DNA from: a virus
Taxonomy: Duplodnaviria; Heunggongvirae; Uroviricota; Caudoviricetes
Strand: one strand, 5' to 3'
Length of the DNA: 13,646 nt
IMG/VR virus record: IMGVR_UViG_2724679293_000014
Coordinates: 1-13,646 of that record
The notes under the pieces are model-generated. The model did not search any database and was not told where the DNA came from. It saw only the letters and a list, made by a program, of their open reading frames with translations. The position numbers and the translations under genes were made by a program. Each line of letters opens with the position of its first letter. Within the stretch, counting starts at the first letter, position 1. Shown in pieces: positions 2,987 through 9,043 of this stretch.

Positions 2987-3211
2987 ATGTCATCAAAGAA
3001 CAGAACCCGCAGAACAACAACCCGCAACATCCGATTTCCAAACCAGATAATTGAACAAATTAACATCGCTCTTGACCTGAAAGGTTCAGGTAATTTTTCA
3101 GCGTGGGTTATTGAAGCCTGCAGAAGAAGATTAATTAATGAAAAATATTCTCAATTTGTACCCAACAAAGACAAACACGACCAGAGCACCTGTTCAGACA
3201 GGTTTACTTAA
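2987..3211 (+). CDS. Small ribbon-helix-helix-like DNA-binding protein, 74 aa; possibly YnfO/YlcI-like prophage protein
   Basis: Track ORF with ATG start; TRNIRFPNQIIEQINIALDLKGSGNFSAWVIEACRRRL fits a strand-helix-turn-helix (Arc/CopG-like) pattern. An intrinsic terminator follows immediately. Family assignment is from pattern only. Confidence 0.55.
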   Translation: MSSKNRTRRTTTRNIRFPNQIIEQINIALDLKGSGNFSAWVIEACRRRLINEKYSQFVPNKDKHDQSTCSDRFT

Positions 3212-3230
3212 ACGACTTATATATGACACA

Positions 3231-3259
3231 AAAAGCGACCACTAAAGTCGCTTTTTCTT
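3231..3259. terminator. Bidirectional rho-independent terminator between two convergent small genes
   Basis: aaaagcgac-cactaaa-gtcgcttttt: GC stem with an A-tract before and a T-tract after, so it is usable from both strands. Confidence 0.6.
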
Positions 3260-3292
3260 ATGGTAACAGGCAATAACTCTCTCAGATATTTT

Positions 3293-3607
3293 TTAGCATT
3301 TTTTTGACCGCGCGTTTCCGGACGTATTCTGTTCTCCTGTCCCTTTATATCGTCGGAATACCCGCCGCTCTTCAAATCCCATTCCCAACTCAGAATGTAG
3401 TCTGTTGACCGCTTGTTTTATTTCGGTCAGGTTCACCGGTGAAACCGGAGTCCGGCGCGCCTTACGCAAACACTCTGCTCGTTTCTGTGCCGCCACTTTT
3501 CTTTTCTGGTCATCACTTAGCTGTACCATCACTTTTGCCCATCGTTCAGCTGCTCTCCGGTACAGTCCTTTTTTCTCCAGACATTCTGCCACGTGATCAT
3601 GTAGCAT
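3293..3607 (-). CDS. Small basic protein, 104 aa; putative PerC/Pch-family transcriptional regulator
   Basis: Track ORF; ATG at 3607 preceded by a strong Shine-Dalgarno (GGAGGT, about 6 nt spacing). The N-terminal motif HDHVAECLEKKGLYRRAAERWAKVM resembles what I recall of PerC/Pch proteins of pathogenic E. coli prophages; not verified. Confidence 0.6.
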   Translation of the reverse strand: MLHDHVAECLEKKGLYRRAAERWAKVMVQLSDDQKRKVAAQKRAECLRKARRTPVSPVNLTEIKQAVNRLHSELGMGFEERRVFRRYKGTGEQNTSGNARSKKC

Positions 3608-3642
3608 AAGTGACCTCCGATTATCTACAGACTGCCATCCTG

Positions 3643-3670
3643 AATTTACCTTCCCTTAATGAAATAACAA
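3643..3670 (-). promoter_or_regulatory. Candidate sigma70 promoter for the PerC-like gene (TTGTTA -16 nt- TAAATT)
   Basis: Minus-strand reading TTGTTATTTCATTAAGGGAAGGTAAATTCAGG lies about 35 nt upstream of the SD/ATG, with a T/G-rich tract further upstream. Confidence 0.35.
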
Positions 3671-4072
3671 TAAAAAACAAACCACGCAAAAACAATAAAA
3701 CAACACACAAAAAAAACTAAATAACAAACAAAAATAATCACCTTGTTTTATTATTTTTTGAGGGAGCAATTACTGAACAAAAAACGCTGACTATATACTC
3801 AAAACCAAACAACTATTCTGCCAATCAGGTATCATGGCAACACACGGAATTACCGTGTTTTTGCCTTCTCTGCCCATACAATACGGGCATATACTTCATT
3901 CTCTATTGTAATATTTCTATCCATGTGCCCCACTCCATTTACCTGTAAATAATATTCAAAATATTTATCACAGAAATCGTTTTTGGCCATGAACTGAGCA
4001 CACTATAAAGTCCGGAACTGACTCTTTGTTAAATTACCTTAACGTTACCAGTAACACCTTCATAACAAAATA

Positions 4073-4540
4073 TCACGGTATACACTGGGTACGGATATAT
4101 TCCTGTGCTCCTTCCAGTTGCTTCTGCATTGCCATCAGCCGTTCTCTGAGGATGAAATAATCCCGTTCAGCGGTGTCTGCCAGTCGGGGGCCGGTTGCAT
4201 TATCCACGCCGGAGGTGCCGGTGGCTTCACGCACGGTACCGGAGCAGGTGGCGTTGATCCGCAGGCGCTTACGACCAGCGGCAACATCAGCACGCAGAGT
4301 TTCATTTTCAGCTCTCGCATCGGCTAATTCCCTCGAGTATCTGGCATCAAGTGCAGCGACATCACGCTGGCGTATCTGCATATCAGTAATTGTCGCGTTC
4401 GCCAGCTCCAGCTCACTGGCTTTTTTATCGCGCTGCTCTTTGTAGATGATGGCGTGATCACGGTAATGATTCAGCCCCAGACTAAGCGCACCACAGGCCA
4501 CCAGCAGGACAATGATAACCACGCACAGAACACGGTTCAT
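4073..4540 (-). CDS. Rz: Rz i-spanin (inner-membrane spanin), about 155 aa
   Basis: Track ORF 4073..4597 begins at a TTG; the likely true start is the ATG at 4540 ([39 protein letters not shown]...), which aligns with lambda Rz (…[45 protein letters not shown]…). Confidence 0.9.
   Translation of the reverse strand: [155 protein letters not shown]
4135..4320 (-). CDS. Rz1: Rz1 o-spanin lipoprotein embedded in the +1 frame of Rz, 61 aa
   Basis: MRELKMKLCVLMLPLVVSACGSTPPAPVPCVKPPAPPAWIMQPAPDWQTPLNGIISSSENG: lipobox VSAC, proline-rich, matching the lambda Rz1 pattern (…CVKPPPPPAWIMQPPPDWQTPLNGIISPSERG). Confidence 0.85.
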   Translation of the reverse strand: MRELKMKLCVLMLPLVVSACGSTPPAPVPCVKPPAPPAWIMQPAPDWQTPLNGIISSSENG

Positions 4541-4541
4541 A

Positions 4542-4655
4542 TCACCACCAACGGATTGCCCAGACCAGAACAGCAATGGCCACAATACGAATGGCAAAAG
4601 CTGCCGCTCTTGTTAAATCCAGACTGGCTGGCGTCTCCACTTCAATGCCTTTCAT
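4542..4655 (-). CDS. Hypothetical 37-aa single-pass membrane peptide, stop codon 2 nt before the Rz ATG (TGATATG)
   Basis: Hand translation: MKGIEVETPASLDLTRAAAFAIRIVAIAVLVWAIRWW; SD-like GAGGT about 10 nt upstream; below the track length cutoff. Speculative. Confidence 0.3.
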   Translation of the reverse strand: MKGIEVETPASLDLTRAAAFAIRIVAIAVLVWAIRWW

Positions 4656-4753
4656 AATGGACAACCTCAGAAAGAATCTTTTATACTTCCTCACAGGGAA
4701 AGTACCTCCCTACCCATAATTTCTCCCTTGCCTTGCTCAAGGTCAGAAAACAC

Positions 4754-4790
4754 AAAACCCCGCTTGCTGCCAACAAACGGGGTTTTTACT
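4754..4790. terminator. Intrinsic terminator-like hairpin between endolysin and Rz
   Basis: aaaaccccg-cttgctgccaacaaa-cggggttttt; a T-run follows on the plus strand and TTTTGTGTTTTC follows on the minus strand. Confidence 0.5.
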
Positions 4791-4875
4791 TTTATTCACT
4801 TAGGTTTTACCAGTTTTCAGGATTTCGTGTTATCCCCCCGCGTTGGCCAACGTCATTTTTCAGGAAAATATTCTG

Positions 4876-5409
4876 CTATCTGTCGATGTCCCAGCACGCC
4901 AGCGCGCTCTCCTGGTCACGCCGTGAGACCTGACCGTAGCAATTATTTGAACGGATACGGCAGTCTCTGCCACCGTCCTTAATCCACCAGCGAATCGCCT
5001 CACAGGCACCTTTTCGATCGCCTGCATTAATTCGTTTATAAAACGTCGACGGGAAGCACTTACCGGGGCCAATGTTGTACGGACAGAATGACGCGATCCC
5101 CGCTTTCTGGGGTTCGGTCAGCGGCACCCGGATGTTTTTCTCCACCCATGCCAGCGCCTTGTCACGTTCGATGGCATTAACCCGGTCGCATTTTTCCTTT
5201 GACAGCTTCATGCCAGGAATAACAGGCTTACCATCCACCAGAATGGCACCACGGCAGATGGTCCAGATCCCCGCACCATCACGGTATGCCGTGGTGTGGT
5301 TACCTTCCTTTTCATCCAGAAACTGGTCGAGGATTTCAGGCGCAGAAGCACCTGCACCAATCAGCGCCAGAACGGCAGCCGACAGGCCGTATTTTATTTT
5401 TTCGTGCAT
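4876..5409 (-). CDS. R: SAR endolysin (phage lysozyme, T4-lysozyme/GH24-like, phage 21 R type), 177 aa
   Basis: N-terminal Gly/Ala-rich weakly hydrophobic segment GLSAAVLALIGAGASA (signal-arrest-release type) followed by the catalytic region EGNHTTAYRDGAGIWTICRG, analogous to phage 21 R (…[20 protein letters not shown]). Confidence 0.9.
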   Translation of the reverse strand: MHEKIKYGLSAAVLALIGAGASAPEILDQFLDEKEGNHTTAYRDGAGIWTICRGAILVDGKPVIPGMKLSKEKCDRVNAIERDKALAWVEKNIRVPLTEPQKAGIASFCPYNIGPGKCFPSTFYKRINAGDRKGACEAIRWWIKDGGRDCRIRSNNCYGQVSRRDQESALACWDIDR

Positions 5410-5419
5410 GGGGATTTAT

Positions 5420-5460
5420 CGATTTCTAATCCCTTGATATGTTAGGTATATAATCCAACA
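5420..5460 (+). promoter_or_regulatory. Candidate promoter for the plus-strand moron ORF (perfect -10 TATAAT at about 5449-5454)
   Basis: cccttgatatgttaggtatataat; AT-rich, but the -35 element is weak or mis-spaced. Confidence 0.3.
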
Positions 5461-5526
5461 CTCATGGTCGCTCTCATAAACATATCCCTTGAGACGCAGC
5501 AGATTACAACAAATGAAGCCATATAA

Positions 5527-5841
5527 ATGAACAGTAAAGAAAGTTTGCGCAGAAGATTTTTACAACTAATGACAGAAAACGTTAAATCAGAGTTACTTCT
5601 TCTGATGGCAGATAATAACGAAGCAACAAGCAGCATTCTTGCAGACCCTTACGGTAAGATCTCACATAAAACGCTGGATATTATTACCACAACATTAACA
5701 CCGCTGATGCTTCAACGGCTGAAACATAATATCAACGCATGGGTTAATGAAGAATTAAGTCCTCCCTGCTTATGGGATTCTCGTTACGCATGTCAGCAAA
5801 AAATGCGAATTTTCAACTTACTATCACCAAAGCTCAGGTAG
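5527..5841 (+). CDS. Hypothetical protein, 104 aa, convergent moron inserted between holin and endolysin
   Basis: ATG-initiated track ORF with protein-like composition (MNSKESLRRRFLQLMTENVKSELLLLMADNNEATSSILADPYGKISHKTL...) in an AT-rich island; an 8-bp-stem hairpin follows at 5847-5876. No recognisable family. Confidence 0.45.
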   Translation: MNSKESLRRRFLQLMTENVKSELLLLMADNNEATSSILADPYGKISHKTLDIITTTLTPLMLQRLKHNINAWVNEELSPPCLWDSRYACQQKMRIFNLLSPKLR

Positions 5842-6096
5842 CCATAAAATCCTGCCCTTCATGGCATACAGGATTTCAATGGAATCACAATGACCAACTC
5901 TTGCACAGCTGTATCCCTGACTCCCCGACAACTCAGATTTTCAGTATCTGCTGCTATCTAAAGAGAAAGCGCACAAATGCAAGGGTCTTTCATCACGTCC
6001 TGTTATTGATTGCCTGTGACCTTTTCTCACCTCATGGAACGTTTTTTCAGTTAGAAATATTCATTTTACAACCAGTTCGTATTGTTTATTCATCGA

Positions 6097-6303
6097 CTAC
6101 TCTCCCCGCGCCACCTTACGACGGTCCTCTCTGATTTTGAAATACAGGTTAGTCAGATACGTCAGCAGGCCAAACAGCAGACTTCCCAGCACACCTATTG
6201 CCACCCACTGGGACGGAGAGACTTTGTCCAGCAGCTGCAGTAACCAGTATCCCGTCCCCACCGCTGACGTGGTGTATGACACACCTGTTGTGATTTTTTC
6301 CAT
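6097..6303 (-). CDS. S: Pinholin (phage 21 S21-type class II holin), 68 aa
   Basis: [68 protein letters not shown] is near-identical in pattern to S21 ([68 protein letters not shown]) as recalled. Confidence 0.9.
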
Positions 6304-6558
6304 CTGATGTATGTCTCCGTCACCGCCGACAGAAAATGAAAGTAAAGAAAAACAAAAAAACCGCCAGTGTCACCCACTGACGGCCAACTCCGGGAGCCGT
6401 GATTATGGCATTCAGGCTCTGCTAAAAATGCCAGATAACATTCCGGCCTCCCCTGATTCAGGTTATAAATGACACAATATCTTGACAACACCCGTCACTG
6501 TCTGTCAGAAAATATACCGCCAGGCATAAGTATCATGTGAAATCCAACTATCCTTCTG

Positions 6559-6601
6559 AGCCAGCACCTCTCCACCGAAAGTCAGTGCTGGCTGTTTTTT
6601 T
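6559..6601 (+). terminator. Plus-strand rho-independent terminator (module 1)
   Basis: agccagcac-(loop)-gtgctggct followed by gttttttt; no A-tract upstream, so it is oriented for the plus strand only. Confidence 0.5.
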
Positions 6602-6708
6602 CCTTAATAAAGCATCTGTAACTGAAACAATCCGCATATTGATAATATATTGACAGGCATCATTGCTGTCTGTGAAAAATAAGTCTCTACAAACATATAA
6701 GGCCTTTT

Positions 6709-8689: not shown

Positions 8690-8784
8690 AAGAAATGAAG
8701 AAGGCCACGCAGTTGCGCAGCCTGATAAACCCTGGTTAAAATCCACACGATAACAACACAACAATATCAGTATCTCATGCTATT

Positions 8785-8846
8785 GCCCGAACCCATTCGG
8801 GCATTTTTTACCCATAAAAAATGCCCCTCCGGAGAGGGGCATTTTT
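8785..8846. terminator. Terminator cluster: plus-strand hairpin with T-run (8785-8809) and a bidirectional terminator (8816-8846)
   Basis: gcccgaacccattcgggc+atttttt; aaaaaatgcccctc-cgga-gaggggcattttt with A/T tracts on both flanks. On the minus strand the second would stop late transcription ahead of nanS-p unless antiterminated. Confidence 0.6.
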
Positions 8847-9043
8847 GCATGCACATTCTTTTTCTTGCATGGTGCCGGGTGCCTCCCGGTGAATTCAGTA
8901 TCAGCACCTGAATCCGCGATTATCACATATACCTACTTGCTGATTGCCCCTCCGCACAGGGGGATTCACCATGCAGTAGTATTTTTAATAAACAGCAAAT
9001 AAAAAAATCAAGCATTATGCAGGCTGTTTCTTTTTATCACCGG

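Follow-up and report, generated by a model that had tools for sequence, protein, structure and literature searches.

A conserved gene for a small predicted membrane protein, with a terminator-like hairpin, between the endolysin and Rz genes of a lambdoid prophage of enterohaemorrhagic Escherichia coli type

Accounts of lysis cassettes in Gram-negative phages usually name three components: holin, endolysin and spanin. In phage P2 a membrane-protein gene, lysA, lies between the endolysin gene K and the spanin genes lysB and lysC and affects the timing of lysis, and the late operons of lambdoid phages carry morons in the sense of Juhala and Hendrix, among them HK97 gp15 and lambda bor and lom, and likewise ant in prophage Sp10 of Escherichia coli O157:H7 Sakai and LT-II in prophages of enterotoxigenic E. 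coli (ETEC). The analysis presented here concerns a 13,646-nt stretch of viral DNA (IMG/VR record IMGVR_UViG_2724679293_000014; hereafter the window), which is the late region of a lambdoid prophage of enterohaemorrhagic E. coli (EHEC) type. A gap of 335 nt between its endolysin and Rz genes (4541-4875) holds a non-coding tail behind the endolysin gene and, after it, a hairpin and a small open reading frame (ORF), which together we call the cassette. In hundreds of E. coli genomes, EHEC O157 Sakai included, the ORF stands between the endolysin and spanin genes as a fourth, strongly conserved gene, for a small, predicted membrane protein.

In its working the cassette seems closest to a moron or to an accessory lysis gene of the P2 lysA kind, and its two starts recall dual-start holins. 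As with morons, extra DNA of low G+C content lies between genes that adjoin in relatives (lambda R/Rz; rrrQ/rzpQ of E. coli K-12), a terminator hairpin bounds it, and the same endolysin-Rz slot carries the ant and LT-II genes elsewhere. Unlike in a typical moron, the hairpin of the cassette stands upstream of the gene, the gene has no sense promoter-like site of its own, and it is coupled start to stop to the next gene; in one GC-rich relative (locus L143) a second hairpin follows the ORF. P2 lysA occupies the same position between endolysin and spanin genes and likewise encodes a membrane protein outside the three core lysis functions, but LysA is much larger, spans the membrane several times and has no sequence relation to the peptide. 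Dual-start holin/antiholin genes (lambda S105/S107; phage 21 S68/S71) also encode a small membrane protein in a lysis cassette from two nested in-frame starts, with a longer product that carries extra positive charge at its N terminus, whereas the peptide considered here has a single C-terminal helix, ends ...VWAIRWW right after the hydrophobic segment with no charged C-terminal tail, and occurs in cassettes that already own holins. It also differs from i-spanins of the Rz type, which have an N-terminal anchor and a periplasmic coiled coil, in that its only hydrophobic segment is C-terminal, with three residues after it.

A conserved small gene before Rz

The gap and its junction with Rz contain the following features, given in the direction of lysis gene transcription:

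4791-4875, minus strand: conserved non-coding tail linked to the endolysin gene R (module A), which starts GCAGAATATTTTCCTGAAAAATG and ends in an A-rich AAU-AAA-AGU-AAA-AAC run
4747-4787, either strand: bidirectional intrinsic-terminator-like hairpin, consisting of an A-run, a 9-bp G+C-rich stem (4782-4774 with 4766-4758), a 7-nt loop and TTTTGTGTTTT
4691-4727, minus strand: leader with GGGAG and an 8-codon mini-ORF (ATG 4717 to TGA 4693-4691), the stop of which overlaps GTG 4694 (GTGA)
4542-4694, minus strand: long form of the small ORF, 50 amino acids, MRKYKRFFLRLSIMKGIEVETPASLDLTRAAAFAIRIVAIAVLVWAIRWW, from GTG 4694, with GGAGG (4709-4705) 10 nt upstream
4658-4687, plus strand: antisense sigma-70 promoter-like site, TGGACA-18 nt-TATACT, within a near-invariant block over the 5' end of the ORF
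4542-4655, minus strand: short form of the small ORF, 37 amino acids, from ATG 4655 to TGA 4544-4542, annotated by the NCBI pipeline PGAP as hypothetical protein WP_000675931.1 and as ECs_1094 in Sakai
4538-4549, minus strand: coupling junction GGTGGTGAtATG; the Shine-Dalgarno-like site of Rz is made up of the terminal codons of the ORF (W-W-stop), and 1 nt separates the stop from the Rz ATG (TGAtATG)

A length of 37 codons says little by itself; it is the pattern of conservation that lifts this ORF beyond chance. Measured against copies at ~80% nucleotide identity behind other endolysins (viral-contig loci L007, L008, L013 and L017), the ratio of nonsynonymous to synonymous substitution rates (dN/dS) is 0.03-0.07 at a near-saturated dS of 1.5-2.1. 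Variable sites in the ORF are distributed 11/2/28 over the three codon positions, and the sense frame scores better than all five others, two shifted and three antisense. An antisense protein-coding frame was considered and rejected: the signal of the mirror frame is weaker than that of the sense frame, as expected of an echo, and the frame has a stop in L017. Of 110 viral-contig (IMG/VR) copies, 51 of them distinct, about 104 have an uninterrupted 37-codon frame, and ATG 4655 together with its GAGG, 9 nt upstream, is invariant across seven aligned loci. Judged by these substitution patterns, the ORF is a real protein-coding gene under strong purifying selection, and we consider it very probable that it is a real gene in a portable cassette. 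An earlier note on this DNA had reasoned that an interrupted frame or a lack of coding-type conservation in homologous regions would speak against the ORF; the homologs have the frame and the coding-type conservation.

The product is predicted to be embedded in the membrane. Its C-terminal hydrophobic segment has a mean Kyte-Doolittle hydropathy of 2.1 over 19 residues (29-47 of the long form), and AlphaFold2 places a helix there with a predicted local distance difference test score (pLDDT) of 92, in agreement with the earlier description of a 37-codon ORF with a Shine-Dalgarno-like site and one predicted transmembrane helix. The small ORF product matches PHROG 4493 (E = 1.4e-24) and, more weakly, PHROG 1115 and PHROG 3246, with no function assigned to any of the three. 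An exhaustive profile search of 1.8 billion representative proteins returned 29 relatives only, and the named close matches are all from Enterobacterales (E. coli, Citrobacter, Yersinia and Salmonella). Pfam, NCBIfam and PADLOC gave no match for the peptide, for its paralogs or for a 60-residue lipoprotein that follows it in some cassettes, and no paper was found that mentions the accession, sequence, locus tag or PHROG identifiers. The gene is thus already annotated as hypothetical and is a member of PHROG 4493; it is uncharacterised, not categorically new.

Translation probably also starts at GTG 4694, giving 50 amino acids. The long form scores 86.7 bits against PHROG 4493 (residues 1-50 against profile positions 1-54 of 56) and the short form 59.2 bits, the 13 extra residues (RKYKRFFLRLSI) being worth 27 bits more to the match. 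Among the 110 copies the codon at the position of 4694 is GTG in 107, ATG in 2 and TTG in 1, and at the paralog locus L003 the same GGGAG-ATG directly starts a 60-residue PHROG 1115 gene, its ATG aligning exactly with the position of GTG 4694. The extension motif is kept with substitutions in distant homologs (MTVYRKTFRLRISM... and ...KFYHKIFRLRLSM...), and all three variable sites of its KYKRFFLRLSI part are synonymous in the close set. The N-terminal net charge is +5 for the 50-residue form and -1 for the 37-residue form, and the sense leader of the ORF has no significant or conserved structure (z about 0). Both forms are plausible on these sequence grounds, and we infer that both may be produced.

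The junction with the downstream gene is identical whether Rz or the 60-residue lipoprotein comes next, and it is tightly conserved in enterobacterial copies; the spacing of 2 nt between ORF stop and Rz ATG that the earlier note had counted is corrected here to 1 nt. An explanation of the C-terminal RWW as a mere Rz ribosome-binding site was rejected on the grounds that uncoupled distant homologs end in RWW too.

The hairpin and a predicted antisense RNA

The hairpin lies where the earlier note had described a GC hairpin with U-tracts on both strands. Its core, CCCCGTTTG/CAAGCGGGG, occupies 4782-4758, with A/T pairs extending to 4786-4754, the A-run before it and TTTTGTGTTTT after it, and with 15 pairs it is the strongest terminator-like site in 4000-6400. 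Folding on the minus strand reaches -21.8 kcal/mol (z = -4.2; 0 of 200 shuffles as good), whereas on the plus strand, where the hairpin is followed by TTTTTACTTTTATT, the stem is weaker (-14.2 kcal/mol) because a T-G wobble turns into a C-A mismatch. Across 21 hairpin variants 95% of cells are paired, and 3 of 10 pairs have changed on both sides (G-C to A-U, G-C to U-G and A-U to C-G); the observed pairing percentage and covariation score were reached by 0 of 500 shuffles, and slid registers were all worse. As read from its G+C-rich stem-loop and U-tract, the element has the make-up of an intrinsic (Rho-independent) terminator. In all contexts examined it precedes the ORF and lies at the margin of the shared DNA. 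The A-run upstream of it, which is the U-tract of the antisense strand, is present in all seven hairpin classes, and the sense-strand U-tract in three of the seven, being missing or weak in LT-II prophage variants, L143, L144 and L145; presence per class was read by hand from the flanks, the automatic count being imperfect.

The 5' end of the ORF is covered by a block of exceptional conservation. The proportion of synonymous differences (pS) is 0.65-0.71 in the ORF body vs 0.24-0.36 in the ~40 nt from AAGTATAAAAG to CCATTATGAAAGG. Within this block lies the only promoter-like site on either strand in 4000-6400 (4658-4687, plus strand), facing the hairpin ~60 nt away, and no sense promoter-like site was found between the holin gene and Rz. 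L013 and the divergent L145 share the exact hexamers and the 18-nt spacing, the paralog locus L003 has a 9/12 version of the site (TAGTCA-18-TATACT), and the site is the sole hit in each of these three loci; a sigma-70-like site was not found in the GC-rich relatives L143 and L144. Transcription from this site would give a plus-strand RNA of ~100 nt, predicted from sequence to start near 4693 and to end at the hairpin near 4790-4797. Coding for the long form, in combination with an A/U-rich region around the start of the short form, could equally explain the constraint on the block, and the avoidance of the 12 hexamer positions by the six variable positions has a p of only about 0.05.

This arrangement recalls type I toxin-antitoxin and cis-antisense systems (hok/sok, symE/symR, P22 sar) in that a short hydrophobic peptide gene has its initiation region under a predicted convergent RNA with a promoter-like site and a terminator; it differs in that the searches gave neither a toxin promoter nor a match to a known family of antitoxin RNAs, and in that the RNA here is a prediction. 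Small RNAs (sRNAs) of the AgvB/AsxR type (Tree et al. 2014, PMC4104026) provide a second likeness, as short predicted units antisense to late transcription in EHEC prophages with a conserved terminator and a variable body, but the gap has no Rfam match and is not among the listed Hfq-bound orphan sites. The Rfam search gave no match in the gap on either strand at E up to 10, apart from terminator-driven noise, and nothing in 4400-6400; the AgvB and AsxR families (RF02702, RF02703) had no covariance-model match in the gap. The table of Hfq crosslinking and analysis of cDNA (CRAC) peaks of Tree et al. 2014 (PMC4104026) lists no orphan peak in the R-Rz gaps of Sp4 or Sp10, which is uninformative, since sites less than 100 bp from a coding sequence were filtered out.

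Other sRNA loci of the window lie outside the gap. A perfect AgvB anti-GcvB sRNA (8748-8809, plus strand, 96.5 bits) stands back to back with an STnc100/PasD-like sRNA (8810-9000, minus strand, 146 bits), a convergent pair of sRNAs already described from the late regions of EHEC prophages. A location of AsxR/AgvB between R and Rz was considered and discarded: AgvB is at 8748-8809, AsxR lies 3' of stx2B, and the gap has no Rfam match. The Pas sRNAs of a 2026 preprint, also considered as candidates for the gap, are located between esterase and holin genes. EcOnc35, an orphan site from the Hfq-CRAC data of Tree et al. 2014 (PMC4104026), corresponds to window 6511-6584 on the plus strand (Sakai 1186583-1186656), antisense to late transcription and just upstream of a hairpin near the holin gene.

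Contexts, function and rival explanations

The 601 nt around the gap are present at a coverage of at least 80% in 664 of 5426 complete E. coli genomes. The gap runs from the endolysin stop (TAG 4878-4876) to the Rz start (ATG 4540-4538), in keeping with the ~335 bp first reported, and has a G+C content of 0.42-0.44 vs 0.51-0.61 in the flanking genes. Its DNA is foreign relative to lambda and to the K-12 prophage Qin. The R and Rz genes of lambda, which the earlier note had described as abutting, overlap by 4 nt; rrrQ and rzpQ of Qin likewise overlap.

The cassette stands behind endolysins of three unrelated types, and two arrangements of it predominate among the viral-contig loci. In about 40 loci the order is P21-type holin, with or without YdfR, lysozyme, cassette and Rz; in about 60 it is two other holin-family genes, an M15 peptidase or GH108 muramidase, the cassette and the 60-residue lipoprotein, with no Rz within 2.5 kb. 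A GH108-cassette-Rz arrangement was also found, and L145, with a protein ~45% identical, has the hairpin followed by the ORF and, after 1 nt, by Rz. In the other main lineage, hairpin and ORF occur together behind at least six unrelated upstream sequences. The gene of the cassette follows the hairpin at a distance of 60-110 nt. Behind the lysozyme tail, the hairpin precedes differing families of single-pass ORFs: the ECs_1094 type, PHROG 1115 and PHROG 4906 (L003, L004), and a family of the form FDFSKLIRE...IRWW, for which L005 and L006 carry no annotation. Past the 85-nt tail, the Sakai Sp10 sequence diverges to the antirepressor gene ant and a 48-residue transmembrane ORF before Rz. These arrangements indicate that the gap is a lysozyme-linked 85-nt tail plus a portable cassette, not leftover recombination junk, and that, as far as sequence comparison can tell, the hairpin is a hinge for module exchange; they suggest terminator hairpins as joints for cargo swapping. 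The endolysin-Rz junction is a recurrent cargo slot (ant, LT-II genes, several small membrane ORF families) even if the cassette is only a moron.

The earlier note had read the region as a recombination seam at which a small membrane protein, a possible modulator of spanin or holin function, may have been captured. A mosaic junction between a phage 21-type S/R pair and a lambda-type Rz is borne out by the 'P21 holin S' match, a lysozyme unrelated to lambda R and an Rz 66% identical to lambda Rz. Capture of the ORF at this seam is contradicted by the occurrence of the pre-formed cassette after M15/GH108 endolysins, before the lipoprotein gene and next to capsid genes. Since the cassette occurs in many contexts, it has no specific tie to lambda-type spanins or phage-21 holins.

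Several of these loci carry further features of their own. In ETEC prophages (L017-L020, 2287-3424) the LT-IIA/LT-IIB enterotoxin genes lie between the GH108 endolysin gene and the cassette, and the sense U-tract of the hairpin is deleted. In L143 the ORF lies in a GC-rich lambda-like head module, exactly between direct hairpin repeats of 48 nt (2923-2970 and 3157-3204; 94% identical), which look like the trace of a cassette inserted or duplicated at a hairpin. In the M15/GH108 lysis cassettes the lipoprotein gene follows the ORF via TGAtATG (L007 1680-1862, L008 1649-1831, L021 10926-11108); its product has an LLVGC lipobox and a mature part of ~30 residues with three cysteines, and belongs to PHROG 7528. 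No Rz-like gene lies within 2.5 kb in these cassettes, and a conventional spanin may be lacking. Five loci have a 68%-identical lipoprotein gene ~760 nt after Rz instead. A relationship of the lipoprotein to colicin lysis proteins was dismissed, Pfam giving no support.

The explanation that we favour, while holding it at somewhat less than an even chance, is that the ORF encodes a late inner-membrane accessory peptide translationally coupled to Rz. Given that no sense promoter-like site was found and that terminator-like hairpins stand ahead of both the holin gene (6385-6359) and the ORF, transcription of the ORF and Rz is probably left to the Q-antiterminated late polymerase alone, as lambda biology would suggest, and the peptide would therefore be made together with the lysis proteins. 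Translation of the ORF would feed ribosomes into Rz, and the nested starts (GTG 4694 and ATG 4655) could yield two isoforms of a single-pass inner-membrane peptide, which most likely would tune envelope disruption, either in its timing or through the insertion or activity of the next-encoded membrane protein. In the prophage state the hairpin may block stray transcription from either side from entering the neighbouring genes. The peptide itself is probably not a holin, endolysin or spanin. Conserved coupling to the following envelope gene, nested starts and a predicted convergent RNA are the features that deserve attention. A role as a late lysis accessory in particular is a more tentative proposal than the peptide and its coupling, and several observations weigh against the favoured explanation. 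In two GC-rich metagenomic phages the ORF follows capsid genes with the hairpin upstream, outside any lysis cassette and uncoupled, and such homologs argue against a lysis-specific role. The peptide has neither the charged C-terminal tail typical of holins nor a periplasmic domain able to reach the periplasmic part of Rz, GTG 4694 has become GAG in L017 and L018, and the near-invariant 40 nt upstream of the ATG together with the universal antisense U-tract point to a function at the RNA level, to which the favoured explanation gives only second place.

Such a function forms the core of one rival, in which the hairpin ends an RNA of ~100 nt complementary to the initiation region (GGAGG/GTG and GGGAG/ATG) and thereby silences leaky translation of the peptide and the coupled Rz in lysogens; in a variant of this idea the predicted RNA could be trans-acting, in the manner of AgvB and AsxR, which are convergent sRNAs of prophages. 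We consider this cis-antisense unit unlikely as the principal function, at roughly one chance in a few, and it is not exclusive of a coupled accessory peptide, which may possibly be under just such control. The sole promoter-like site in 2.4 kb is aimed at the hairpin and recurs unchanged in L013 and L145 despite a protein only ~45% identical in the latter, with a similar site in L003; the 40-nt block that carries it is near-invariant against a pS of 0.65-0.71 in the ORF body, the antisense U-tract is kept in 7 of 7 hairpin classes as compared with 3 of 7 for the sense one, and the window already has convergent sRNAs of such style (AgvB, STnc100). Set against these points, the RNA is a prediction and has no Rfam match on either strand, the site is not found in L143 or L144, no sense promoter was found for a 'toxin', the hexamers coincide with conserved codons (K-Y-K, L-S-I), so that coding constraint may explain them, and their avoidance by the variable positions has a p of only about 0.05. 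No Hfq-CRAC peak is listed for the Sakai Sp4 gap, though the distance filter would exclude this site. An ordinary moron, that is, a lysogenic-conversion or exclusion factor unrelated to lysis that sits in permissive late-operon gaps, seems to us a shade more doubtful. It would account for the homologs that GC-rich phages carry behind capsid genes, one of these homologs lying between hairpin repeats, for the classic morons (ant, LT-II) in the R-Rz slot elsewhere, for the low G+C content of the gap and for an ORF that stays intact in many, probably defective, prophages, but the cassette has no sense promoter-like site, its terminator stands ahead of the gene and not behind it, PADLOC, Pfam and NCBIfam give no match, and enterobacterial copies show tight conservation of the start-stop coupling with the late gene that follows.

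Least probable of the explanations, in our estimate, is a 3' untranslated region or processing element, in which the holin-lysozyme message is terminated or stabilised by the hairpin, an Hfq-binding RNA perhaps arising from the tail of the lysozyme gene, and the ORF serves mainly as a coupler for Rz. The 85-nt tail and hairpin do stand jointly behind the lysozyme gene before three different ORF families, the hairpin has five A-R-N triplets immediately on its 5' side, and the ribosome-binding site of Rz falls within the last ORF codons; yet in the other lineage the hairpin accompanies the ORF and not the upstream gene, the tail is without covariation, and a pure coupler is ruled out by the strong selection on the amino-acid sequence together with the uncoupled homologs. 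A bolder combination would make the whole a self-contained, horizontally mobile regulatory cassette, in which a dual-start peptide and a convergent cis-antisense RNA share one bidirectional terminator, and which would insert at late-operon hairpins and set when or whether the next envelope-disrupting gene (Rz or the lipoprotein gene) is made or active. This is a long shot, only slightly better placed than the processing element; if true, it would represent a new class of phage lysis regulator, or a new type I toxin-antitoxin-like family in lysis cassettes. Should the coupled accessory peptide or the predicted antisense RNA tune lysis, it would influence when phages leave pathogenic E. coli and would add a small-protein or RNA layer to the textbook pathway. 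A link to Shiga-toxin release is speculative, since the copies examined sit in prophages without stx.

The endolysin-linked tail and the neighbouring genes

Module A is present, unannotated, behind the lysozyme gene of many Stx phages and of more than 2000 E. coli genomes, and it has no covariation-supported RNA structure. An 8-codon mini-frame within it (ATG...GGA TAA; 4830-4856, minus strand) is constant in length while its codons vary freely among prophages between conserved flanks. The motif GCAGAATATTTYSCTGAAAAATR (4852-4874, minus strand) directly follows the lysozyme stop, and in L007 (1875-1897) and L008 (1844-1866) follows the lipoprotein stop instead, which looks like a shared module-boundary sequence.

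All lysis genes of the window are encoded on the minus strand, and window 3130-6624 is 99.6% identical to prophage Sp4 of E. coli O157:H7 Sakai. The genes on either side of the gap are as follows:

6303-6097, minus strand: phage-21-type class II holin, Pfam 'P21 holin S'
4876-5409, minus strand: lysozyme-type endolysin (phage 21 R / RrrD type) with an N-terminal hydrophobic segment resembling a signal anchor, PGAP 'lysozyme'
4073-4540, minus strand: Rz (i-spanin), the downstream neighbour of the gap, 66% identical to lambda Rz
4320-4135, minus strand: Rz1, embedded in Rz, with a match to Pfam PF06085

The endolysin, which has no similarity to lambda R, matches the PDB chains 3hde/3hdf ('Lysozyme'), taken here as phage 21 R, and 4zpu (RrrD). 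An upstream TTG start for Rz (174 residues, Sakai ECs_1092; the added part, 4541-4597 on the minus strand, overlapping the small ORF) was not adopted, as lambda Rz aligns from ATG 4540 (155 residues).

The lysis cassette has a second insertion, of 687 nt, in the holin-lysozyme interval (5410-6096), with a G+C content of 0.35-0.41. It contains an opposite-strand ORF (5527/5569-5841, plus strand; WP_000138558.1, ECs_1097) that has no Pfam or PADLOC match, and related prophages have the same-strand ydfR at this position. A terminator-like hairpin (6359-6385, minus strand) lies just upstream of the holin gene, so that the holin-lysozyme pair is bracketed by hairpins on both sides. After Rz follows a PerC/Pch-family regulator gene (3293-3607, minus strand), which is pchA in Sakai Sp4 (NC_002695.2 1183365-1183679). 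In Sakai, the entire segment from the holin gene to pchA is inverted relative to the esterase gene and lies beside an IS629 copy.

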